Positions 3,913-54,360 of a DNA stretch of 54,360 nucleotides are shown in pieces. Location: the UHGV virus genome UHGV-1841366. The stretch is one strand, 5' to 3'. This DNA is from a virus. The stretch's first letter is position 1, and each line of letters opens with the position of its first letter. The notes beneath the pieces were generated by a model that ran no database searches, had not been told where the DNA came from, and saw only the letters and a list, made by a program, of their open reading frames with translations. The translations under genes were made by a program, and so were the position numbers.

Positions 3913-4056
3913 ATGGGCGATTTCAAGAAAACCCTGAAGGAAAGAACCGAAATGGTCAGAAAGCAAAACGCCTCTTCTGTCATCAGATACGCAAGGCAGT
4001 TCAGCAAAAACAACAGACAGATTGAAGAGCAAATCAAATCAGTCATAGTCAGATAA
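3913..4056 (+). CDS. hypothetical small protein (47 aa)
   Basis: Not in the ORF track; ATG 3 nt after the previous stop, hand-translated to TAA at 4054-4056, followed by a strong terminator. Confidence 0.4.
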   Translation: MGDFKKTLKERTEMVRKQNASSVIRYARQFSKNNRQIEEQIKSVIVR

Positions 4057-4530: not shown

Positions 4531-4782
4531 ATGAGCTATCAAATTCTGACGACGACAGCAGCCAGCATTACTGAGCTGAAAAGAAACCCTATGGGCACTG
4601 TAGCTGAAGGTGAGGGGGAGGCCGTCGCAATCCTGAACCGGAATGAACCCGCGTTTTACTGTGTCCCACCAGAACTTTATGCCTACTATCGGGAACTCGC
4701 CGAGGACGCTGAACTTAACGCGATTGCAGATGAAAGAATGAAAGAACCGGACATTGTGAAGGTTAACCTGAATGACCTATGA
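4531..4782 (+). CDS. type II antitoxin, RelB/StbD-like
   Basis: 83 aa; overlaps the downstream RelE-like gene by 11 nt; C-terminus (DAEL...VKVNLNDL) resembles the RelB C-terminus as I remember it; GAGGAGG ribosome-binding site. Confidence 0.6.
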   Translation: MSYQILTTTAASITELKRNPMGTVAEGEGEAVAILNRNEPAFYCVPPELYAYYRELAEDAELNAIADERMKEPDIVKVNLNDL

Positions 4783-5053
4783 GCTGGCATTTGAACGCAG
4801 GGCACTGAAAGAATGGCAGAAGCTCGGCCACACTGTTCGTGAACAATTCAAAAAGAAGCTGTCAGAGCGCCTGAAAAATCCACATGTCCCCGCAGCCAGG
4901 CTATATGGTCATACTGACCGTTACAAAATTAAGCTTCGCGCATCCGGTTACAGGCTCGTTTATCAGGTAATTGATGAGAAGGTTGTTTTGCTTGTCATTG
5001 CTGTAGGAAAAAGGGAAAGCAGCGAAGTCTATCACACGGCTGATACTCGTTAG
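4772..5053 (+). CDS. relE: type II toxin, RelE/ParE superfamily
   Basis: 93 aa; the stretch YKIKLRASGYRLVYQVIDEKVVLLVIAVGKRESSEVY closely matches the E. coli RelE sequence as I recall it (not database-checked). Confidence 0.7.
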   Translation: MTYELAFERRALKEWQKLGHTVREQFKKKLSERLKNPHVPAARLYGHTDRYKIKLRASGYRLVYQVIDEKVVLLVIAVGKRESSEVYHTADTR

Positions 5054-5100
5054 CAAAGTGCGCCTTATATCCTCGCCTGTTGACTAAATCTCATAATAAC

Positions 5101-5314
5101 CTGAGGTCAATTTCTTCTGTTTGTGACCTCAGGTTAATTTCCTTTATTTATAACCTTAACTTATTAGGCTGCATTTTATTCCGCGTCATCGCTTCATTAT
5201 TTATGTATATGGCGACCTTATTTAATTACGCCCACCTGAACTTACTTCTTTTCCGCCTGTTTCATTCAGCGATAATTAACGCATCGAAACGAAACTAAAC
5301 GAAAGGAGTTAAAA
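5101..5314 (+). promoter_or_regulatory. leader region duplicated upstream of 6217 (copy 1)
   Basis: Perfect inverted repeat CCTGAGGTCA/TGACCTCAGG at 5101-5134, then a block about 85 percent identical to 6143-6216 ending in the ribosome-binding site and ATG. Confidence 0.55.
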
Positions 5315-6034
5315 ATGAGTGCGCGTCTTAAGAAGCTTATCAAAAAGCGTAAATCTCTTAAAGAACATGCAGAATTGATAAATTTAATTGAAAAACGTTT
5401 TCCAGTCATTTCGGATATTGAGGACTTCTATTGGGTGGAGAAATGTAAAGTTTGGGATGGCATTGATGATGTAAAAGATGTGGATGATTTTGTCAGCAAG
5501 TACAACCCAGACATTAACTACAAACTAGCTGATGATTTTGCTGGCTCGTCTAAAGATGATCCGCTTCCTGATTGGTTTAACATTGATGATTATCCTAGTT
5601 GCATGTGTACCACCTACACCAACAAAGATTTTAGTAAAGCGTGGTTTGCTATTGCTTATGGCTGTTATTTCAATAAGTCCGACGGAAGCAAAAGACCATA
5701 TTTTCTCGCTGAAATAGACTTAACCAGCGGAGAGATTACAGTACACGAAAACCACAGGAATCTAATGAAGCTTGTTGATAGCGTTCGCGTACTGGATACA
5801 GACGCCCAGCAATTAACGAACAATGCATGGTTCGGACTTGATGGAGTAAAAGGGGGTATCGAACTGATAATGGGTCATCTTTTAAATGAATACTCGGACT
5901 GGTATCATCCGCCACACAATCCGCTTGAGTCATTTGACGATCCGCTTGAGCCATTTGACGATCCGCTGAAGGACTACATCGATGAACCAATATATATGAT
6001 GGAATCTTTTCAATTAGATATGATTCCAGCATGA
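5315..6034 (+). CDS. hypothetical acidic protein, paralog of 8730..9377
   Basis: 239 aa, very D/E-rich; shares the block AWF..(16-18 aa)..LAEIDL(T/L)SG(E/K)ITV and a C-terminal LEPLESF/PLESFDD motif with the minus-strand protein at 8730..9377. Confidence 0.55.
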   Translation: MSARLKKLIKKRKSLKEHAELINLIEKRFPVISDIEDFYWVEKCKVWDGIDDVKDVDDFVSKYNPDINYKLADDFAGSSKDDPLPDWFNIDDYPSCMCTTYTNKDFSKAWFAIAYGCYFNKSDGSKRPYFLAEIDLTSGEITVHENHRNLMKLVDSVRVLDTDAQQLTNNAWFGLDGVKGGIELIMGHLLNEYSDWYHPPHNPLESFDDPLEPFDDPLKDYIDEPIYMMESFQLDMIPA

Positions 6035-6039
6035 CAAAC

Positions 6040-6070
6040 GCCACCAGTTAACGCTGGTGGCTTCAAGTTT
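6040..6070 (+). terminator. hairpin containing a Chi octamer
   Basis: GCCACCAG / CTGGTGGC stem, then TTCAAGTTTT; GCTGGTGG at 6053-6060. Confidence 0.45.
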
Positions 6071-6077
6071 TGCTCTC

Positions 6078-6216
6078 ATCACCTCAGGTCAAATTTCCTC
6101 GTTTGCAACCTCAGGTCAATTTAAGAATGATATCACCTGTATCCCTGAACTTACTTCTTTTCTGCCTGTTTCATTCAGCGATGATTATTACATCGAAAAC
6201 AAACGAGGAATTAAAA
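6078..6216 (+). promoter_or_regulatory. leader region duplicated upstream of 5315 (copy 2)
   Basis: Direct repeats ACCTCAGGTCAA at 6081-6092 and 6107-6118; block homologous to 5236-5314. Confidence 0.55.
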
Positions 6217-7143
6217 ATGAAACCAGTATTTTTGGGGCGAATTGATATTAGTGAATTGTTTTCAGTTAGAGATGGGTTCCAATATGACTGTGATTGCCTT
6301 GAACTTAATGGTCTTGAACGTGAATACAGATTGGCTATTGTGAATGATGGTAAGAAGACATTTTCTGTCGAATGTTTTGAAAATACTTACTTTAAGCAGG
6401 TGTTGAGAATAAGACAGCATGTGGAGATGTCAATTCGGGAAAACATCAAAAATAAATGTGAGTTTCTTGTGGTTAAAAATGAAGCAGATGAAATAAACTT
6501 TGTTACGTTCACTGATAGTGGTCGATTGGCTATGCTGGAGCTATTTCAGCTGATCGTTTCTAATAACAGTATAACAGAAGCCTTGAACAGTCTTTCAACT
6601 ATAGTATCAAGAGAAAGAGAAAACACTGGCGCTTTAATTGTAGAGGAGCTAGATGGAATACTCGAGAAGATCAAGAATAAAGAGCTGATTATAGAATATG
6701 GCAAGGAAAGTAGGAAAAATAATTTACATTCAGCTTTTCACTCCCCATATGTTGAGCGTTTGAATGGTTTGGCTGCTTTTGTTAATTTGGACTTTAATAG
6801 ATTTTTTAGTTCTTTTTTTACAGAGTGTGGGCTTGTTATTGTTGAGGTAAATAATGAGAACGATGTCCCCAAAATTATAGTACATTCGATGCCTGATATA
6901 TCTCTCAATGAAATTGGGGACAAACTGGAGAATTTATACGATGTAAAAAGCATGGAAGAACTCATAGAGTATCTGGCCATAAATGCGGTAGCCATGGCTG
7001 ATAATGATGTGTTTGGGGTTGGTGCACTGCATGAAGGTTTTCTTGACGCCCTTGAGCTTTACGGGACTGCTCGCTGGTTTCTGTCAGGATTAGTGGATGA
7101 TGCACCTTTACTCATCAATACAGATTATTTTTATTCCAGTTGA
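6217..7143 (+). CDS. hypothetical protein
   Basis: In-frame ATG (MKPVFLGRI) of ORF 6070..7143 preceded by GAGGAATTAAAA; the upstream part of the ORF lies in the duplicated leader. AT-rich. Confidence 0.5.
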   Translation: MKPVFLGRIDISELFSVRDGFQYDCDCLELNGLEREYRLAIVNDGKKTFSVECFENTYFKQVLRIRQHVEMSIRENIKNKCEFLVVKNEADEINFVTFTDSGRLAMLELFQLIVSNNSITEALNSLSTIVSRERENTGALIVEELDGILEKIKNKELIIEYGKESRKNNLHSAFHSPYVERLNGLAAFVNLDFNRFFSSFFTECGLVIVEVNNENDVPKIIVHSMPDISLNEIGDKLENLYDVKSMEELIEYLAINAVAMADNDVFGVGALHEGFLDALELYGTARWFLSGLVDDAPLLINTDYFYSS

Positions 7144-7346
7144 AAACAAGGCCACCACTGCTGGTGGCCTTAAATGACCATCCTGTCTCCCGCAGGCTAA
7201 AAACACCAACCTCTTACCTCCAGGCAACCGACAAACCCACCTGTTCCCGTCCGGCTACCGCAACTTTCCACTTTGACGCCTTATTCGTACAACCATAATT
7301 AACACCAACAAGAGAACAATTTGTTATTTAGAATAAGGAATCAATC

Positions 7347-7829
7347 ATGAATTTTATCGCTACTGTAAACGCACCCGCACATGGCAATATCGCTGTAACG
7401 TTCTCTGACACTGAAAAACGAGTACTTGGTGCATGGCGCGACAATGAGACGGTAGAACTGTCAGCACAAGAAAAATGCATTATTGCACGCGACATCATTG
7501 GCAATCGTCGTTACTCGCGGGTATTTGAGAAAGCGTATGTGGTAAATTCTGGGTTCGGAACGTTCGTCTTTCCGGTGCGCTCCGGGCGATTCTGCCAGTC
7601 CAAGCTGATTGAGTTCGCTACGCAGATTTCTGTCTGGATTAAAACTCAATCGTCGTTCAAATTTTCCGACGATGAAGCAGTATCGCAGGGGATGCGGATC
7701 GCCAACAATGCAATTAAATGCAAAAACATTACGTATACCGCTGGCGTTGACACATGGAGACTGTTTTGCGCTAACTTTATGCTGAATGTATACGCAAGCA
7801 ACCGCATCCACATCCTTGATGGCGTGTAA
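7347..7829 (+). CDS. hypothetical protein
   Basis: ORF track; AAGGAA ribosome-binding site; variant palindromic motif at 7314-7326 upstream; terminator downstream. Confidence 0.55.
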   Translation: MNFIATVNAPAHGNIAVTFSDTEKRVLGAWRDNETVELSAQEKCIIARDIIGNRRYSRVFEKAYVVNSGFGTFVFPVRSGRFCQSKLIEFATQISVWIKTQSSFKFSDDEAVSQGMRIANNAIKCKNITYTAGVDTWRLFCANFMLNVYASNRIHILDGV

Positions 7830-7838
7830 CTGAGAAGA

Positions 7839-7860
7839 GGGCCAGAAACGGCCCTTTCTC
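7839..7860 (+). terminator. rho-independent terminator
   Basis: GGGCC / GGCCC stem with AGAAAC loop followed by TTTCTCT. Confidence 0.6.
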
Positions 7861-7955
7861 TATAGCCACCAGCTGCCGCAGGGAAATTTTCAGAAACGGC
7901 TAGGAACGCATTCATGAGCCGACGGGAAACGGCCAGGATTTTTTCGGGAAACGGC
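7845..7955. repeat. cluster of four GAAACGGC repeats
   Basis: GAAACGGC at 7845, 7893, 7926 and 7948 (last two 22 bp apart), flanked by a 9-bp inverted repeat CCACCAGCT (7866-7874) / AGCTGGTGG (7989-7997). Confidence 0.5.
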
Positions 7956-8365
7956 TACATTTGCCTTTATGTAGAAAAAACATCGGGAAGCTGGTGGAAT
8001 CCAATCAGCGGTTGTCGGACAGGTGAGCGGGGAAAATCATTATGACTCTCGTCACCTGAGACATCCAGATTTCTTTCATAGCGTAATCACATACGTGATT
8101 AAGTGGTGTGATTATGTGAAAAATCACGCGCACATAATACGCGAGCGGATACGGAACAAAACAAAATGCAGATTCGCGCCGACAAATAAACGCGGATCAT
8201 AAAGCAAGACTAAAAGCCAATGATTAACTATGCGCTATAGCGCAATATAACGCATTTTAAGCGCGTTAATGTGTTAAGTAATGGGTATGTACTGGCAAGG
8301 ATATAAAAGCGCGTCCATGGCGTTATTTTGGCGCTTATTTTTATGTTGTTGGAGTGAGTTAAAGA

Positions 8366-8391
8366 CAATAAAAAAGCGCCATCATTGGCGC
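8366..8391 (-). terminator. rho-independent terminator (minus strand)
   Basis: GCGCCA / TGGCGC stem with 4-nt loop; on the minus strand it is followed by a T-run (complement of AAAAA at 8371-8375). Confidence 0.55.
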
Positions 8392-8414
8392 GTTATGGTG
8401 GGAGTATTGGAAAC

Positions 8415-8439
8415 GAAAAAAGCGCCCATAGTGGGCGCT
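8415..8439 (-). terminator. rho-independent terminator (minus strand, possibly bidirectional)
   Basis: AGCGCCCA / TGGGCGCT stem; T-run on the minus strand; just downstream of the stop of the minus-strand gene 8445..8675. Confidence 0.6.
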
Positions 8440-8444
8440 CGATT

Positions 8445-8675
8445 TTATTTATGTAAACTGATTTCAAATCCCATTTCTACAAACGCTTTTAACATTAAAA
8501 ATATATCAGCGTCGTTCACGTCTGCTTTTTTCCGCTCCTGGTCGCTCAATAAGTCAATTTTGCGCGTCGTTTCGTCTATAAGCTCGACTGCGCGCCCAGC
8601 GTAACCAGCGATCCCAGCGATGCGATTAACATAATATTCATTATGGACGTTAACGCCAGCGATTAAAATAATCAT
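8445..8675 (-). CDS. hypothetical protein
   Basis: ORF track; AAGGAG about 10 nt upstream of the ATG on the minus strand. Confidence 0.5.
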   Translation of the reverse strand: MIILIAGVNVHNEYYVNRIAGIAGYAGRAVELIDETTRKIDLLSDQERKKADVNDADIFLMLKAFVEMGFEISLHK

Positions 8676-8696
8676 GCTTTAAAAACTCCTTTAAAT

Positions 8697-8714
8697 GCGC
8701 CCATATTTGGGCGC
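8697..8714. repeat. 18-bp palindrome GCGCCCATATTTGGGCGC (copy 1)
   Basis: Identical 18-mer at 9451-9468; each lies just downstream of a minus-strand gene stop. Confidence 0.6.
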
Positions 8715-8729
8715 ATGATTTATATGGTA

Positions 8730-9377
8730 TTATTCAAAATATGGAAATGCAGAATTTTCTTCATGATCTAATACGAAAGTTTTTTCATTAATATAATTTG
8801 GCGCATTATCGCCAAATGATTCTAGTGGTTCGAGATGATTGAAATCATCTTTTTTAATAAAGTAGGATATATAATAGATACCATCGTGTAAATCAGCCAA
8901 ACCACACCAAATATAATAGCCAATAGGATAACATGCAGGACCACGATTCACATAAACTGTAATTTTTCCGCTTAATAAATCCATCTCAGCAAAAAAAGCT
9001 AATCCGCTTTTTTCCTCTTCTCCTTCTTTTTCTCTGATTTTTCCGTTTAGAACGTCAGCACTTTGAATAAACCACGCTCTAGTAAAATCCGCGTTAACAT
9101 ATGTAGCAAATTCGCCAAAGTCGCAATTTTTGCGCAAGTTGGGTAAATCCTCGATTAAATCGAGATTGATATTTAATTGCGCTGTATTTTCAGCAATAAT
9201 TAGCTCTGCTTTCGTTAATTCCGTGTTATTAAATTCTGGCTTTTTTTCTGGTAATTTGTGCACTACTTCTTTGATTTTGTCAGCGAATTTAATTTTTGAT
9301 TTAATCAATGGAAGACGAGATTCAGCCATCTCTACGAAAGCAGAGATAAAAGATTCGCAAACAGTAAAAGTTTTCAT
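8730..9377 (-). CDS. hypothetical acidic protein, paralog of 5315..6034
   Basis: 215 aa; shared sequence blocks with 5315..6034 (see there); AT-rich. Confidence 0.55.
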   Translation of the reverse strand: MKTFTVCESFISAFVEMAESRLPLIKSKIKFADKIKEVVHKLPEKKPEFNNTELTKAELIIAENTAQLNINLDLIEDLPNLRKNCDFGEFATYVNADFTRAWFIQSADVLNGKIREKEGEEEKSGLAFFAEMDLLSGKITVYVNRGPACYPIGYYIWCGLADLHDGIYYISYFIKKDDFNHLEPLESFGDNAPNYINEKTFVLDHEENSAFPYFE

Positions 9378-9450
9378 ATTAAATTCCTCAATTAAAATCT
9401 GAACCAGATGAATAAAGCTAATATTAGCTTTATTCCGAGTTTTATCTCAT

Positions 9451-9468
9451 GCGCCCATATTTGGGCGC
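9451..9468. repeat. 18-bp palindrome GCGCCCATATTTGGGCGC (copy 2)
   Basis: Identical to 8697-8714; a 24-bp perfect palindrome AATAAAGCTAATATTAGCTTTATT lies next to it at 9409-9432. Confidence 0.6.
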
Positions 9469-9481
9469 TTGATTCCATTAA

Positions 9482-10132
9482 TTACGCTTTAAAAGCATCA
9501 GCTAGATAATTGTAGAAATCTTTTTTAATGAAGCGATATTGTTGAGTACCAGCTTTGGCGCTTCCCATTCCTTTGACTTTCTCAACAAGTCCGAGACGTT
9601 CGCAAAGATTGATTAGCTGGTTAGCTTGAGTATAGCCAGCGTCTAAGCGTAAATCATTTGCTCGCTTAACTTCATTCATTAAATCAAAAACAGCGCCATT
9701 AGTAAAAACTTCTACTTCGTCTTTGATCATGTGAACAAGTGCAAACACGCGTGATCCGCTCATATCGTCTTTGGAGTACTCGCATTTACCAGCTTTGATA
9801 GATTTAACCAGATAAACTAATTTTTCCAGTGAGTAACTGTTAGTCATCGCTTCGCGGAAAAACACTTCTGGTGCTTGTTTGCTTGCTTTAATCGCAAAGT
9901 AAAACACAGCAGACAATTTTTCGTCGTTAACAGCAGACAAAATGTTATTAGAGAAATATTTTAACTTTGTAGAAGCAGCGCGAAGATTATCTTTATCGTT
10001 TTTGGTCAGCGCGCCAGTGCTATTAAGAAGTTCATTCTTTTGCCCCAAGTCGTTAGCTTTTGCACCCAGCTCAGCAGCAACAATATTAGCAGCTTCAACG
10101 ATGTTTTTTTTAGATAATATAATGTTGGTCAT
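9482..10132 (-). CDS. hypothetical protein
   Basis: ORF track, 216 aa; no confident domain. Confidence 0.5.
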   Translation of the reverse strand: MTNIILSKKNIVEAANIVAAELGAKANDLGQKNELLNSTGALTKNDKDNLRAASTKLKYFSNNILSAVNDEKLSAVFYFAIKASKQAPEVFFREAMTNSYSLEKLVYLVKSIKAGKCEYSKDDMSGSRVFALVHMIKDEVEVFTNGAVFDLMNEVKRANDLRLDAGYTQANQLINLCERLGLVEKVKGMGSAKAGTQQYRFIKKDFYNYLADAFKA

Positions 10133-10423: not shown

Positions 10424-10987
10424 TTAAAATGGAAGGATTCGGTCAACCCAATCGAAGAGAACAATCATTCTTGCATGTTCCCTGATTTTCATCGTCACCT
10501 GACAAGCATCAACGCCTAACGACACTCCCTCTATTTCACGGCCATCCGCCATGTAGACCCTTATAGATCTGCCGTTTTGATGAGCTTTGCGACATATCTT
10601 AAAAAAGTCACGACGTGATGGCTGGTTGTTCACGTAGTCAGGATGTACGGTAAGCCTGTCCGCAAAGTCCCCATCTACTTCTGGAGGTATAATCGTTTCT
10701 ATAGAGCTAACTTTCCCAAGAGGAAGACGAACTCGACGCTCTTTGCTTCTTGGAACGGGTGATAGATCAAGTTTGTTGCGTGATGGTAGTGTTCCCTGTA
10801 CATACATGTTGAATACCTGTCCATCTTCCATCGTGACTTTTACAGGAACAGAGTGTGCCCTCCAGAACATCAAGGTATGTTCCACATTAGAATAGTCTCG
10901 CGGCCATACTTCAGCCGGTATGCCGTATGTAATATCTTTCGTCGTCATATCATTATAAAGTGGTTGGCAATATGTCCATTGTACCAT
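10424..10987 (-). CDS. hypothetical protein
   Basis: ORF track, 187 aa; overlaps the upstream lipoprotein gene by 35 nt, so the true start may be the internal ATG at 10948; no clear ribosome-binding site for either. Confidence 0.4.
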   Translation of the reverse strand: MVQWTYCQPLYNDMTTKDITYGIPAEVWPRDYSNVEHTLMFWRAHSVPVKVTMEDGQVFNMYVQGTLPSRNKLDLSPVPRSKERRVRLPLGKVSSIETIIPPEVDGDFADRLTVHPDYVNNQPSRRDFFKICRKAHQNGRSIRVYMADGREIEGVSLGVDACQVTMKIREHARMIVLFDWVDRILPF

Positions 10988-12185: not shown

Positions 12186-13166
12186 TTAATTGGTGTTTTT
12201 GTTCTTCTCTTTTTTGCTAATTTCATCACATGTAAGGTTCATTATGTCTATGTTTTCTTGCTTTTGAAGGTTGCCGACAATTTTTTTGCGCAATTCATAA
12301 AATCGCTCGCGTGGTATAGCTTCCTTGTTGCCGTTGATGTGAAGTATTGCGTGACAGCTAGGGCAGACGGCAATCAGATCTGTTTTTGGGTTCACGCTTC
12401 GTGCATCTTCGCCTTGTGAAAGTGGGACGATGTGGTGAGCGTGTAGCAGCGTTTTCGTTTCTTTGCCGTCAATTTCCTTGCCGTATATTTCCGACATCGT
12501 TCTGCAACATAATTGACACCTGTAGTCTGCGTTTGCCAGAACGTCATTCCTTAACCCGGATACGCGGCTACGATGTTGCGACTGGATTAATCTTGTTTCG
12601 CCCTCTATATATTCCTCAACTTCTTCTTTCTGGAGGTCGTAGCTGATTTCTTCTTGAGTCGGATGGACTTTTTTGTATAGAAGATCAAGATATTTAATGT
12701 CCTCTGTTATATATTTGGAATCCTCTAGCGAGGATATTTTTCCTGAGTCTATGTAGTCAATTAATGTAATAAGGAACATCTCTATCGATAGCCTGTTTTT
12801 AAAGGCAAACGAATATCCAAGATGTCTTCTATCTCCTGAATGAATTGGCGTCCAATGAGATTTCTCAATTTTTTGTGGTGTTACGCAGATACCTTTGCCG
12901 ATATTGTTTACATGTTCCAATAATTGATAAACAGAATTAATGCGGTAAGCATGTGTTACTAAAGAATTTATTTTTCTTGTGCCGACGGAGGATTTTGTCA
13001 TAACAACATGATGAGATATTTGTTTTTTTAAAATCAAATCATACGATGTAGCTTTTTGGTTTTCGCCTTTGTCGGTTTTTTTTATTAAATTTAGTTTTTT
13101 ATTAGAGGCTATTTTCTCTATTTCTTCTCTAACTTCTTTTATCGTCATGTAAGTTTCTTTTGTCAT
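12186..13166 (-). CDS. HNH endonuclease with N-terminal domain of unknown function
   Basis: 326 aa; C-terminal HNH-type motif (CQLCC ... HAHHIVPLSQGEDARSVNPKTDLIAVCPSCHAILH); AT-rich. Confidence 0.6.
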   Translation of the reverse strand: MTKETYMTIKEVREEIEKIASNKKLNLIKKTDKGENQKATSYDLILKKQISHHVVMTKSSVGTRKINSLVTHAYRINSVYQLLEHVNNIGKGICVTPQKIEKSHWTPIHSGDRRHLGYSFAFKNRLSIEMFLITLIDYIDSGKISSLEDSKYITEDIKYLDLLYKKVHPTQEEISYDLQKEEVEEYIEGETRLIQSQHRSRVSGLRNDVLANADYRCQLCCRTMSEIYGKEIDGKETKTLLHAHHIVPLSQGEDARSVNPKTDLIAVCPSCHAILHINGNKEAIPRERFYELRKKIVGNLQKQENIDIMNLTCDEISKKEKNKNTN

Positions 13167-14226: not shown

Positions 14227-15786
14227 CTAATCTCGTTTCAGAACTCCAAAATCGAATGTGCCATCAATTGGCAATACACCTTCTGCAAAGCCAGGTGTGG
14301 TGTCGATGATGTGTTTTCGCTCATAAGAGTGAGACAACAGGTATTTGTTGCTAATGTCAATGAAATCAGTGATAAAACACACGTTTGCCTGATTTTTTTT
14401 TGCTCGTAAGCCACGACCGACACGCTGTCTCATTTCAACTTCTGCTTTCCCACCACCAGCAAGAATGACCGCGCCCACGCTTGGCACATCAACACCGACA
14501 TCCAGAATAGTCGAGCCTATTAAAACATCTATTTCGCCAGACGCTAAACTGTTCAGCTTTGCTTGCCTTGTCGTCTGGTTCGATTCCCCATAGATGAAGT
14601 CAACTCTAAGGCCGGACTCTTTCATCATCTCCATCAGGATTTGCCCGTGGCGTTTAAGACGAACCAGAGTCATGCAGTTGAGAGAATGTTGCTTATAGAG
14701 CAATGCTTCTCGTACTATGGCCTCGTTTCGTCCCAAATTATACACGATCCCCAACTGATAAGCTTTTTGGTAGGCAGTGCTCATACCTACCCTAAAATTG
14801 AGGTGTTTGTTGGCAAGTTCTGCCTTGATTCTGACCTCGTCTGGTTTGTAGGCAACTTTATGATAAAGGAAATATGGCTTTGCCAGAATACCTCTATCAA
14901 TCAGGTATTTTTCTGTAACTTTAATTTCAATTCGCCCGGCCACAGCCATCAGACGCATGTTGGCTTCTGTAGAAGCCTTCATGAACGGCGTTGCCGTAAG
15001 CGCCAGGCGATAGTCTGCGTTCGTACATAATCTGGCAATGTCATAGAAATTAGAGCCTGAAGACTCATGCGCCTCTTCCAGAATAAGAAGAGAGACACTT
15101 GAAAGGAAGCGCTTCACTAACTCCTGACGTTTGAGGTGGTAGCTCTTCTTATCTGGTGTTGCATCGCGTGGTGGTTCTTCGAGGAAACTTGCAATAGTTT
15201 GAACTGTAGCGACGTTGATATGTCGTGATACCTGAAACTCACCCGAGCCAATGATTCCAACCTTTTGGTCTTTTAACCACGGTTCGCCATTTTTGGCGCG
15301 GTAGTCGATGGATCTCTGGAAGTTTTCGGCCATCTGAAACATCAGAACAGATCGGGTTGTTAAAAATAATGTCATTCGACCGATACGTGCAGCTGCTTTG
15401 CAGGCAACGTTAGATTTCCCACCACCAGTAGCGATCTGCGCAATCATCATTCCCTCGCGAACCAGTGTTTCCACAGTCTGATCCTGATACGCATAATCAG
15501 GATTGTATGGGAATGGGTTAACCGCCGGATTTGGCTTTCCAAGCGCCGGGGCTTTGTCTTTGCGGATATGAACACATTTGATGCCCGCCTTGTTCAAGTT
15601 CGCCGCTACAGGCTTGGCAAAGCCAGCAGGGAACGAGTTTTTACTCCAGTGGAACATCGTGCTTGTGCCCTTCCAGTCGCCAGTGTCGACTTCGTAGCTC
15701 AACATCTGTTGCACCAGTTGCTTTACCTTGTCATCTGCGCCAGAAATAAGCGCATTTACTGCGTTAGATACAATCCGAACAGTCAT
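14227..15786 (-). CDS. SF2 DEAD/DEAH-type helicase
   Basis: 519 aa; Walker A ATGGGKS, motif II LEEAH, motif III LTATP, motif VI QRVGRGLR. Confidence 0.65.
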   Translation of the reverse strand: MTVRIVSNAVNALISGADDKVKQLVQQMLSYEVDTGDWKGTSTMFHWSKNSFPAGFAKPVAANLNKAGIKCVHIRKDKAPALGKPNPAVNPFPYNPDYAYQDQTVETLVREGMMIAQIATGGGKSNVACKAAARIGRMTLFLTTRSVLMFQMAENFQRSIDYRAKNGEPWLKDQKVGIIGSGEFQVSRHINVATVQTIASFLEEPPRDATPDKKSYHLKRQELVKRFLSSVSLLILEEAHESSGSNFYDIARLCTNADYRLALTATPFMKASTEANMRLMAVAGRIEIKVTEKYLIDRGILAKPYFLYHKVAYKPDEVRIKAELANKHLNFRVGMSTAYQKAYQLGIVYNLGRNEAIVREALLYKQHSLNCMTLVRLKRHGQILMEMMKESGLRVDFIYGESNQTTRQAKLNSLASGEIDVLIGSTILDVGVDVPSVGAVILAGGGKAEVEMRQRVGRGLRAKKNQANVCFITDFIDISNKYLLSHSYERKHIIDTTPGFAEGVLPIDGTFDFGVLKRD

Positions 15787-15868
15787 AAACCTCTTTCCTT
15801 AGTGCCTTTTGTATGTTATTTGGCTATTATAATAAGTAAGCAATTACTTAGTGGATTGTAGCAATAAA

Positions 15869-16549
15869 ATGGATGTAAAAATTACGATTTTGCAGGTTGA
15901 TGTTGCCAACCTTCGCCCGAATACCTGGAACACCAATTCGGTTGGTGCGCAGAATTTTGAAAAACTGAAAGGTTCTATCGAAAAATTAGGCTTTTTTAAA
16001 CCAATTTTGGCTCGTGAAATTGAAGATGGATTTTTTGAAATCCTCGGTGGCGAACATCGCTGGCGTGCCGCTATTGAGCAAGGAATTTCAACGGTTCCAG
16101 TGCTTTCTGTGGGCAAAATTAGCGATGTCGTAGCTAAACAGATGTCACTGGTGGACAACGAGCGATATGGTGAAGACGACCAAATCGCATTGCAACGCTT
16201 CATTGAAGAAATTCAGTCAGAACTTGACTATCAACTGTCTGAAATCGCCCCGTATGACGACGAAATCTCGATGGTTTTAGCAAAAGAGGCGGCAATCGAC
16301 CTTGAAGCACTGGAGGCGTTGTCTCGTGGTAGTGATGAGCCTGTCGATACCGACAAACGAGAGAAAACCGAACGTGTGGGGGCGGAACATCAGACCATGC
16401 GCTTCAAAGTAACTTTCGATGCGTCAGATCGTGTTGCAGAAACCATAAAAAACATCATCAAAGAGCAGGCTATTAACACCGGTAATGAAATGGAGAACGC
16501 TGGTGAGGCTCTGGTGTGGCTGGTCGACTACTACAAGGAGCGTATGTAA
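15869..16549 (+). CDS. ParB/Srx-like nuclease-domain protein 1
   Basis: GGEHRWRAA resembles the ParB GxxRxxA box; start taken at the first in-frame ATG (15851 is GTG); neither start has a strong ribosome-binding site. Confidence 0.55.
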   Translation: MDVKITILQVDVANLRPNTWNTNSVGAQNFEKLKGSIEKLGFFKPILAREIEDGFFEILGGEHRWRAAIEQGISTVPVLSVGKISDVVAKQMSLVDNERYGEDDQIALQRFIEEIQSELDYQLSEIAPYDDEISMVLAKEAAIDLEALEALSRGSDEPVDTDKREKTERVGAEHQTMRFKVTFDASDRVAETIKNIIKEQAINTGNEMENAGEALVWLVDYYKERM

Positions 16550-17217
16550 TGACCAAAAAGTTTGAAATCGTATATCGCGACCCGGCAGATCTTATTCCCT
16601 ATGAGATGAATGCCAAAAAGCATGATGAACAGCAGATCCGAGATCTGGCCGCAGCCATTAAAAAGCGCGGATTTGACCAGCCAATTACGGTCGATAAGAA
16701 CGACGTAATTATTACTGGCCACGGCCGCCGTGAGGCTGCAATTTTTGCTGGACTTGAGCGCGTACCGGTTATTGTTCGCGATGATCTCAGTGATGACGAG
16801 GTTCGTGCGAAGCGCCTTGAAGATAACCGACTTGCCAGCATTGATTACGATGCAATTAAGCTACAGAAAGAGCTTGAGTCGCTTGTTCTGGACGATATCG
16901 AGGTTTTCGGCTTTGAAGAGCGTGAGTTGAATGTTCTCGTTGGCAGCATGACAGAAGAAATGGACACCGACTCGCTAGTTATCGATCTGGGCGAAGAAAC
17001 TAAACGACAGAAGGATGAACACACCGAGATCAGTCGTGAAGTTGCAGCGGAAGAAGTACGTGTTGTCGACGTATTGGGCTTTAAAACGCTCCCTGCTGGC
17101 TCTGCCATTGTTGTTGGTGATTTGCTTGCCCACATGGAAGAAATGACGAGAGAAAGCGGGGTAGACGCATTTGTGGCATATGCGGAGAAGATCTCTTCCG
17201 GGGAGATGGCTGCATGA
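16550..17217 (+). CDS. ParB/Srx-like nuclease-domain protein 2
   Basis: ITGHGRREAA motif; ATG directly after the upstream TAA, with AGGAGCG ribosome-binding site. Confidence 0.55.
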
Positions 17218-23662: not shown

Positions 23663-24544
23663 ATGCCATTACTGCGTGAAGAAGCTGAAAAGCTGTCTAA
23701 CAACGAACTCGAACAGGGTGTGATCGAAACTATCATCGATCGCGATGACCTGTTTGCCATCCTGCCGTTCATGAAGATTAACTCTAAGGCGTATCTGTAC
23801 AATCGCGAGGCTACCCTGAGTGAAGCAGAGTTTATTGACGTGAACGATACCATCACGGAAGGCGCAGCAACCTTCACAGAACATGTAGCGAAGCTGCGTA
23901 TTCTGGCTGGTGACGTAGACGTTGATAAATTCCTGGCAACCACGATGGCCGACACTAACAACCAGTTGGCCATTCAGGTTCGTCAGAAAGTTAAAGGTCT
24001 GGCTCGTGCATTCCGCCGTAATCTGATTTTGGGGGATTCCAGCACCAATGCTAAGGCTTTTGATGGTATTCCACGTCTGATGCATAACGACCAGAAGATC
24101 GATATCGCTAAAGCCTCTATGACTTTCTCTATGTTTGATGAGTTGGTGGATGCAGTGAAAGATCTGGGCGCGGACTGCATTATGATGCGTTCAGAACATC
24201 TTCGTGCTTACCGTGCGCTGCTGCGTACCGTCAACATCGGACCGTCAGAAATTATGATAGAGAATTTTGGGCGTCCTATGCTGTGTCACAACGGAATTCC
24301 GTTTATTGTTAATGACTTTATTCCGTTGACAACCGAAAAGGATGCAGCGGATATTTACTGTTTGCATTTATCGGAAGAGAACGGTTTGACTGGCCTGTAT
24401 GGCGGCGACAATGCTGGTATTGTCGTTGAAAACATTGGTACGGTTCAGAATAAAGATGCAACCCGTACTCGTGTAAAATGGTACTGCTCTCTAGCGAATA
24501 AGCACGATAAGGCTATCGCTGCACTGACTAATGTAAAAATTTAA
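23663..24544 (+). CDS. major capsid protein (putative)
   Basis: 293 aa after the scaffold; followed by a strong terminator, typical for an abundantly expressed capsid gene. Confidence 0.6.
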   Translation: MPLLREEAEKLSNNELEQGVIETIIDRDDLFAILPFMKINSKAYLYNREATLSEAEFIDVNDTITEGAATFTEHVAKLRILAGDVDVDKFLATTMADTNNQLAIQVRQKVKGLARAFRRNLILGDSSTNAKAFDGIPRLMHNDQKIDIAKASMTFSMFDELVDAVKDLGADCIMMRSEHLRAYRALLRTVNIGPSEIMIENFGRPMLCHNGIPFIVNDFIPLTTEKDAADIYCLHLSEENGLTGLYGGDNAGIVVENIGTVQNKDATRTRVKWYCSLANKHDKAIAALTNVKI

Positions 24545-54113: not shown

Positions 54114-54188
54114 GATGGTGTAGCTCAGCGGCAGAGCAGTTGGCTGTTAACCAACTGGTCGGTGGTTCGAATCCACCCACCATCGCCA
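54114..54188 (+). tRNA. tRNA-Asn (anticodon GTT)
   Basis: Hand-folded cloverleaf: acceptor GATGGTG/CACCATC, D-stem GCTC/GAGC, anticodon stem GTTGG/CCAAC with loop CTGTTAA, T-arm GGTGG-TTCGAAT-CCACC, discriminator G, encoded CCA; 75 nt. Confidence 0.8.
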
Positions 54189-54193
54189 ATTTA

Positions 54194-54280
54194 GGGGAGT
54201 TAGTCCGTAGGGGTAGCGGGGTAGACTGTAAATCTACTGTCATTGCGACTCGGGTGGTTCGACTCCATCACTCCCCACCA
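54194..54280 (+). tRNA. tRNA-Tyr (anticodon GTA), long variable arm
   Basis: Acceptor GGGGAGT/ACTCCCC, anticodon stem GTAGA/TCTAC with loop CTGTAAA, 15-nt variable arm, T-loop TTCGACT, encoded CCA; 87 nt. Confidence 0.75.
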
Positions 54281-54284
54281 AATT

Positions 54285-54360
54285 GCCGGTTTAGCTCAGT
54301 TGGTAGAGCAGTCGCTTTGTAAGCGAATGGCCAGCGGTTCAAGTCCGTTAACCGGCACCA
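54285..54360 (+). tRNA. tRNA-Thr (anticodon TGT)
   Basis: Acceptor GCCGGTT/AACCGGC, D-arm TAGCTCAGTTGGTAGAGC, anticodon loop TTTGTAA, T-loop TTCAAGT, encoded CCA; 76 nt fits standard numbering; ends exactly at the window edge. Confidence 0.7.

Follow-up and report, generated by a model that had tools for sequence, protein, structure and literature searches.

Acidic paralogous proteins encoded by self-contained cassettes in two variable slots of an SSU5-group Escherichia phage-plasmid

The viral genome UHGV-1841366, a stretch of 54,360 nt that was analysed whole and is called the window here, is by its sequence an SSU5/pLF82(Cyrano)-like Escherichia phage-plasmid. Its accessory part contains two open reading frames (ORFs), A and B, whose products an earlier note had put forward, as a hypothesis from composition, as candidate anti-defence proteins, since highly acidic phage proteins include DNA mimics that block restriction or other DNA-binding defences. 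Both ORFs are present on opposite strands where that note had placed them (Table 1), and both are preceded by a ribosome-binding site (AAGGAG at 5303–5308, 6 nt 5' of the ATG of A; GAGGA, 8 nt 5' of the ATG of B). A third ORF, C, lies between A and the backbone gene D and was missed by the earlier note, which described a pair only. The three genes sit in self-contained cassettes that occupy two insertion slots of the accessory region, A in slot 1 and B in slot 2, and A and B face in opposite directions because each follows the orientation of its own backbone block. The assignment of the window to the SSU5-group phage-plasmids comes from the sequence flanking the region, which matches phage PhiR41_1, Escherichia phage Cyrano (the pLF82 phage-plasmid), and hundreds of Enterobacteriaceae plasmids that are non-mobilizable and ~105–115 kb in size. 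Weaker flank matches were found to Klebsiella elements and to Salmonella phage SSU5.

The slots were delimited by comparing ~95 related loci anchored on backbone genes named by their PHROGs families (H, phrog_2473; G, phrog_7971; D, phrog_1641; E, phrog_1585; F, phrog_1513). Slot 1, which runs from the upstream anchor (H/G) to D, varies from 354 bp when empty up to 2297 bp, the window having the largest. Slot 2, the gap between E and F, measures 51–54 bp when empty, ~276 bp when it holds a 67-aa gene (phrog_6145), and ~806–810 bp when it holds B. In Cyrano, E and F are adjacent (51 bp), as they are at many loci, and slot 1 is filled by different small genes. In slot 1, A and C each have their own copy of a leader of ~85 nt and end in a GC-rich hairpin, and in slot 2, B is bracketed by a duplicated hairpin. 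Three leader copies occur in the window (nhmmer E from 1e-20 to 1e-24), each with an GCGATAATTA box followed by a ribosome-binding site, and a 61-nt repeat within the second copy (6144–6204) is 89% identical to the matching stretch of the first. The box is invariant in an alignment of 49 distinct copies from related loci, and a leader with this -10-like GCGATAATTA box precedes every slot-1 cassette. In 94 related loci there is always one more leader copy than there are cassettes in slot 1, regardless of the gene family that occupies the slot, and only this window has three. At the other end of the units, an GCCACCAG..CTGGTGGC hairpin is common to the intergenic modules after A and C. The empty slot 2 of Cyrano holds a single GCGCCCA..TGGGCGC hairpin between the F stop and the E ribosome-binding site (L003 ~8546–8563).

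Table 1. Positions in the window of the cassette genes, their flanking elements and the neighbouring backbone genes.
Feature	Position	Strand	Remarks
PhD/YefM-like antitoxin and ParE/RelE toxin pair	4531–5053		Directly upstream of A
ACCTSAGGT motif pair 1	5098..5135	+	27 bp apart; 12-bp inverted repeat AACCTGAGGTCA / TGACCTCAGGTT
Promoter-like leader copy 1	5230..5313	+	Upstream of A; invariant GCGATAATTA box; nhmmer E=7.7e-24
ORF A	5315..6034	+	239 aa, pI 4.57, net charge -19; family member in slot 1
Conserved core of A	5600..5884	+	~aa 96–190; predicted four to five beta-strands, then long helix
In-frame 21-nt tandem duplication	5916..5957	+	PLESFDD/PLEPFDD; acidic tail of A
Hairpin GCCACCAG-ttaac-GCTGGTGGC, then T-rich run	6040..6071	+	Likely terminator of A
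ACCTSAGGT motif pair 2	6081..6116	+	ACCTCAGGT; direct orientation, 27 bp apart
Promoter-like leader copy 2	6134..6215	+	Upstream of C; nhmmer E=2.7e-21
ORF C	6217..7143	+	308 aa, pI 4.61; probable third member, between A and D
Hairpin GGCCACCA-ctgc-TGGTGGCC	7150..7169	+	3' of C; related to hairpin after A
Promoter-like leader copy 3	7248..7345	+	Upstream of D; resident copy in all close relatives
Backbone gene D (phrog_1641)	7347..7829	+	Right boundary of slot 1
Backbone gene E (phrog_1585)	8445..8675	-	One boundary of slot 2
Hairpin GCGCCCA-aatat-TGGGCGC	8695..8716		Copy downstream of B
ORF B	8730..9377	-	215 aa, pI 4.82, net charge -13; family member in slot 2
Core of B	8850–9113	-	~aa 89–176
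AT-rich perfect hairpin, 11-bp stem	9410..9435		Between upstream GC hairpin and B start
Second hairpin GCGCCCA..TGGGCGC	9449..9470		Upstream of B, just past F stop
Backbone gene F (phrog_1513)	9482..10132	-	Other boundary of slot 2

Alignment supports the relationship between A and B that the earlier note had read from shared sequence blocks, and identifies them as true distant paralogues. BLASTP aligns the two proteins at 26% identity over 138 aa (E=3e-7), and their Smith-Waterman score is 101, whereas shuffled versions of B average 33.2 (sd 5.2, max 60) and 0 of 2000 reach it. In a multiple alignment the common blocks TYxNxDFxxAWF, FxAExDLxSGxITVxxN, WxGL..GI..I, and PLESFxD..YIxE follow one another in the same order. 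The acidic C-terminal tails are likewise real: the last 39 aa of A contain 11 D/E and one K/R, and the last 35 aa of B contain 8 D/E and one K/R. The duplication in the tail of A is unique to the present allele, which encodes 239 aa vs 232 aa in all homologues. Two leads concerning this tail were dropped: mimicry of the SSB C-terminus (FDD...IPx), since the FDD repeat occurs only in this allele and the others read SFDNR, and, along with it, a beta-clamp-like QLDMI ending; B has neither motif. As the earlier note had also observed, the genes lie in DNA of low GC content (A 39.6%, B 33.0%; the window has 45.5% and the phage-gene part of it 47.0%), and C, at 36.7%, is similar.

The family probably extends well beyond this pair. 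Some E. coli elements encode a 198-aa protein in slot 1 (s198), and Klebsiella and Salmonella elements encode 166-aa relatives of it (s166), 32–34% identical to s198. When a profile of A and B is aligned with a profile of s198 and s166, hhalign returns P=0.0068 (0.0028 with B first) and puts the YxNxDF and ExD...ITV blocks in register, with a score of 24.5–26.6 vs a mean of 13.3 and a maximum of 22.5 for column shuffles (0/200 reach it). The s198/s166 profile in turn matches C (P=7.7e-4; score 30.7 vs a shuffle maximum of 19.3). Reciprocal hmmsearch over a set of 298 slot ORFs links the A/B profile to s166 (E=1.4e-3) and the s198/s166 profile to both C (9e-5) and B (3.8e-3); C is also matched by hmmsearch at E=2.4e-4. 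The core of A is the region common to B and, by profile, to s198/s166 and C, and the C-terminal ~125 aa of C (nt 6763–7140) hold its counterpart. Across the five clades the motifs [YF]xNx[DEK][FM][TSN]xx[WFL], hhxE[VIM][DSN], and [TI][VI][HYV] stand in register and are followed by a helix with G[IFL]H[DE], and a tail motif, L[ED]xLE[SL][FY]G...D[ND]AP..IN, is common to B and C (DNAPNYINEKTF in B, DDAPLLINTDYF in C). We consider it probable that A, B, C, s198, and s166 form one five-clade superfamily, so that the window would hold three members instead of two, and on this reading the family layout is a conserved alpha/beta core with variable N-terminal extensions. A window-wide HMM scan found no further family member beyond A, B, and C; its one weak match (E=0.002) was to an unlikely antisense ORF at 23672–24190.

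The bounded units described above recall two known kinds of phage accessory gene. Morons are described for lambdoid phages. Like them, A, B, and C lie between genes that are adjacent in relatives, which holds for both slots, deviate from their surroundings in nucleotide composition, have a leader and hairpin flanks, and are highly variable in presence. Because leader/hairpin cassette units occur here together with low GC, the architecture is classically moron-like, the leader being the putative promoter of a unit defined as promoter, gene, and terminator between backbone genes (PMC9928086). Unlike phage morons, at least three cassettes of one element encode diverged members of one family, and their autonomous expression in the lysogen is presumed. 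The second comparison is with the cassettes bounded by promoter-stem-loop (PeSL) elements in hyperplastic regions of T4-like phages. There, as here, small accessory ORFs lie between repeats of promoter-like sequence and stem-loops that could supply homology for recombination and cassette shuffling; the present cassettes differ in belonging to another phage group, in their unrelated sequence, and in having a leader that is only a putative promoter.

Repeated leaders and hairpins would provide the homology by which cassettes are gained, lost, and stacked through recombination. Recombination at the repeats would explain why A, B, and C appear in every combination among relatives, where A alone, A+C, C alone, C+B, s198, s198+B, and A+C+B were all seen. 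The idea that B needs C or s198 as a partner was ruled out, C occurring without B at one locus (L063) and s198 without B in two PLSDB plasmids. Other genes use the same sites. Phrog_1845 in slot 1 and phrog_6145 in slot 2, found at 57 and 23 of the ~95 loci, share with A, B, and C the same positions, the same leader, and small acidic products of unassigned function, but they have no detectable sequence relationship to them and are far commoner. The four ACCTSAGGT copies of the window may mark an operator or other protein-binding site: the first pair comes after the RelE/ParE toxin gene and before A, and beyond it the motif occurs only at 6081 and 6108. A LexA box in the leader was ruled out by its spacing, as read from the sequence. 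Similar GC-rich hairpins are clustered in the 600-bp region where D and E converge (8376–8440).

The family is described by no database searched (Pfam, PHROGs, NCBIfam, PADLOC, and PDB), and from its sequences it appears small and fast-diverging. Pfam gave no family for full-length A and B at E<=0.1, nor for nine core sequences at E<=10; scans of Pfam, PHROGs, NCBIfam, and PADLOC gave no match for A, B, C, s198, or s166; the PADLOC-DB defence models did not match A, B, C, D, or F; and PDB sequence searches with two profiles returned noise only (E>=0.8). Among 5.8e9 proteins, two clusters are homologous to A and three to B, all from Escherichia and at least 84% identical, and an exhaustive profile search of 1.84e9 representatives found nothing outside the A and B clades. 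The s198/s166 profile matched nothing in GTDB genomes and IMG/VR, and the A/B profile matched one IMG/VR contig. Of the 72,556 plasmids in PLSDB, 667 records match the query region (window 5000–9700), and A is present in one plasmid (p009_B), B in seven, and C in seven. The B-bearing plasmids are seven clonal 62-kb E. albertii plasmids, which resemble truncated SSU5-type elements. A protein identical to A is encoded on a metagenome contig with the same order, A-C-D-E-B-F. The whole family is missing from ~97% of related elements, and the accession numbers of the homologues are named in no paper of the library searched.

Composition and predicted structure bear on the DNA mimicry suggested in the earlier note. 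Its description of A and B as very rich in D/E was too strong. Both are acidic (D/E 18.8% in A and 16.7% in B; 45 D/E and 26 K/R residues in the 239 aa of A, 36 and 23 in the 215 aa of B), but of the window's 63 crude gene calls four have a lower pI than A and nine a lower pI than B (ranks 5 and 10), one quarter of the window's proteins have a pI below 5, and equally or more acidic unrelated neighbours include the two ParB_N proteins and a 210-aa protein with 24.8% D/E. Mimicry would still be in keeping with their low pI and negative net charge, their acidic tails, their place among the accessory genes of a mobile element, and the clustering of the acidic residues of A in three low-pLDDT segments, which in the model could be flexible polyanionic arms. 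The comparison with Ocr, a true mimic, is less favourable. Of its 116 aa, 34 are acidic and 6 basic (PMC4872106), or 29% and 5%, vs 17–19% D/E with ~11% K/R here, and on those counts its net charge per residue is -0.24 vs -0.079 for A and -0.060 for B, which are 3–4 times lower. The conserved blocks are hydrophobic and aromatic core motifs instead of acidic arrays; apart from one Asn and one Glu, the residues conserved family-wide occupy aromatic or hydrophobic positions of the core, with no arrays of carboxylates. Because A and B match no Pfam family at all, they also match none of the Ocr, ArdA, or ArdB/KlcA families.

Models were built with AlphaFold2 from a shallow family alignment and are of low confidence (A, pLDDT 63 and pTM 0.64; B, pLDDT 60 and pTM 0.57). 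The same topology was nevertheless predicted independently for A and B, an N-terminal helical hairpin followed by a four- to five-stranded sheet and a long helix, with a poorly ordered acidic tail. These low-confidence models matched no solved structure, DNA mimics included. The earlier note had named an insignificant alignment and a resemblance to an unrelated enzyme family as outcomes that would count against it; the alignment is significant and no enzyme-like fold appeared. A PD-(D/E)xK nuclease core around AExD was ruled out, no lysine being conserved across the clades. A and B therefore resemble Ocr (T7 gp0.3) and ArdA in so far as they are acidic, apparently non-enzymatic accessory products of a mobile element with no DNA-binding motifs, for which an anti-defence role is conceivable by analogy. 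They differ from both in lacking a sequence-family match, in a charge density below that of Ocr, in their larger size (215–239 aa), in a predicted helix-hairpin, beta-sheet, helix layout that has no match among solved structures, and in conserved motifs that are hydrophobic and aromatic. Owing to the low net charge density and the non-carboxylate nature of the conserved residues, mimicry found no positive support, and we regard it as very unlikely that A and B block restriction or other DNA-binding defences in this way.

Rates of evolution set A and B apart from their surroundings. At dS 0.07–0.14, pairwise dN/dS is 0.64–0.85 for A and 0.83–1.13 for B, neither distinguishable from 1, vs values mostly of 0.02–0.4 for the backbone genes H, D, E, and F, and 0.33 for C. 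Replacements are spread along the proteins, in B more densely in the post-core helix and the tail, and spare the family motifs. Such rates could reflect relaxed constraint, or purifying and diversifying selection acting together; positive selection is unproven. Relaxed constraint is what would be expected if the cassettes were evolutionary leftovers, functionless ORFans hitch-hiking in a recombination hotspot, and the extreme rarity of the family, the truncated variants of B (P0004, P0005, and P0006), and a premature stop in C would suit that explanation. The stop lies in frame at codon 135 of the C homologue of E. albertii p2014C-4015-1 and six near-identical plasmids (L001 6309–7241), where the gene is annotated as two. 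Against this, closely related pairs give dN/dS of 0.30 for A and 0.44 for B, and full-length ORFs with intact ribosome-binding sites are found on many independent contigs, P0002 alone occurring in 171 collection blocks. The same motifs recur in paralogues that share just 26% identity, and probably in all five clades, which span three genera; such persistence requires long-term purifying selection on the core. On balance it is improbable that the cassettes are without function.

A further alternative is that A, B, and C serve the element itself, as regulators or maintenance accessories connected with the ParE/RelE pair, the ParB-like proteins, or the lysis-lysogeny switch. A lies directly downstream of the PhD/ParE pair, an FljA-like repressor and two ParB_N proteins are encoded in the same region, and the recurrence of ACCTSAGGT pairs, together with conservation of the leader, suggests that the genes are under shared control. 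The association with the toxin-antitoxin pair is loose, however: A occurs without it at four loci (L004 and L007–L009) and in p009_B, and the pair is also seen with s198 instead. Seen in its own right, the pair comes and goes as a cassette of its own, irrespective of A. A dN/dS near 1 would moreover be unusual for a housekeeping regulator, and since ~97% of related elements do without the whole family, it is not needed for maintenance. An internal regulatory role thus seems unlikely to us.

The explanation that we prefer, and hold tentatively, is that A, B, and C belong to an exchangeable cassette family of non-enzymatic binding proteins that act in phage conflict by a means other than Ocr-type DNA mimicry. 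In this account the leaders would act as promoters, and the proteins, in which N-terminal helices that vary and a partly disordered acidic tail would be added to the conserved alpha/beta core, would bind a variable protein partner in phage-host or phage-phage conflict, whether as counter-defence at entry or in exclusion by the resident element. The variable hotspot, the moron-like architecture, the extreme rarity, and the raised dN/dS are circumstantial evidence compatible with an anti-defence or conflict role. Element-internal regulation, functionless ORFans, and true DNA mimicry are rated below this explanation because of the points counted against each. A more specific version can be put forward only as speculation: the hotspot would stack leader-gene-hairpin units at the leader, A, B, C, s198, and s166 would be diversifying anti-defence or counter-exclusion binders whose specificity is set by the helices and the tail, and the window would carry three such specificities.

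One neighbouring idea was kept apart because it predicts a phenotype opposite to anti-defence, namely that the genes are single-gene defence or superinfection-exclusion morons which would be expressed from the resident phage-plasmid and protect its lysogen. The promoter-like leader that each gene would own, the hairpin, the lower GC, and the insertion between genes adjacent in relatives all agree with it, and PHROGs places the alternative occupant of slot 2 in the class "moron, auxiliary metabolic gene and host takeover". Neighbouring genes of the region are transcribed during lysogeny as well: CYRAN_102, CYRAN_109, and CYRAN_117 are transcribed more than 5-fold above background in the Cyrano lysogen (PMC9928086) and fall in the corresponding region, Cyrano itself having no A, B, or C. 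However, PADLOC gave no match, and family scans revealed no membrane segment and no nuclease, NTPase, or other effector signature. We consider such an exclusion moron rather unlikely.

Several observations weigh against the conflict role that we favour. It is built on guilt by location and on evolutionary rate, and a dN/dS near 1 suits relaxed constraint equally with diversifying selection. In neither slot did the ~95 related loci yield a known defence or anti-defence gene, and the other slot occupants are likewise without assigned function. The stop in C in seven E. albertii plasmids means that members of the family are dispensable. A promoter consensus scan did not return the leader, whose copies before A and C have a poor -35 region. 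The link of A and B to s198, s166, and C was made on weak profile scores (hhalign probability 5–25%), and direct A–C and B–C pairwise alignments are not significant, so that the membership of C depends on the intermediate s198/s166 clade. Finally, the low confidence of the models leaves an enzymatic fold possible.

As it stands, this is an ORFan family located in a variable region, as is often seen in phage genomes. Should its members be conflict factors, the short list of counter-defence and exclusion genes known in SSU5-group phage-plasmids would gain a new family. A DefenseFinder survey of SSU5-group elements detected only the anti-retron system Rad, carried by 16% of Escherichia elements (bioRxiv 10.1101/2025.09.12.675607); this scarcity of known anti-defence genes leaves room for new ones without being evidence for them. 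Clinical E. coli, Shigella, Salmonella, and Klebsiella commonly carry SSU5-type elements, and the family is a candidate to be screened for anti-defence or exclusion activity. With its repeated leaders and hairpins, the layout offers a concrete, testable model for accessory-gene swapping and a clean example of leader-bounded stacking.

The genes around the slots provide some further context. In the accessory part, small plus-strand genes, which in relatives lie downstream of metG, converge on a minus-strand block that encodes the FljA-like repressor, an HNH protein, and a DEAD/ResIII helicase, after which two ParB_N genes follow divergently on the plus strand. Gene F (9482–10132, minus strand) is a highly divergent allele, with dS of 1.05–1.35 vs other loci. 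Because the values for D, E, and H are far lower (0.02–0.12), gene F points to a mosaic backbone or to allele replacement beside slot 2. The product of 10424–10987 (minus strand) strongly matches PF03614 (E=1.3e-70), the FljA family labelled "repressor of phase-1 flagellin", and the gene is kept in related phage-plasmids, which suggests that the element may alter host flagellin expression. The HNH-domain protein is encoded at 12186–13166 and the helicase at 14227–15786, both on the minus strand, and the tandem ParB_N proteins at 15851–17217 on the plus strand; the helicase is UvsW-like by the Cyrano annotation and has weak similarity to PbeA of PADLOC.

On the other side of slot 1, a 47-aa ORF at 3913–4056 belongs to the CYRAN_109 gene family, occupies the same position after gene G, and is carried by 38 related loci; transcription of CYRAN_109 is 6-fold above background in the LF82 lysogen (PMC9928086, Table 1). 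Near the slots of related phage-plasmids lie a methionyl-tRNA synthetase gene and a small gene weakly like ValRS_modifier (PF26829). These loci (L010 4666–4965, L095 10040–10339, and L004 1–1110) represent an unusual concentration of genes related to aminoacyl-tRNA synthetases for a phage-plasmid. At the right end of the window, 54114–54360 holds a cluster of tRNA-Asn(GTT), tRNA-Tyr(GTA), and tRNA-Thr(TGT).

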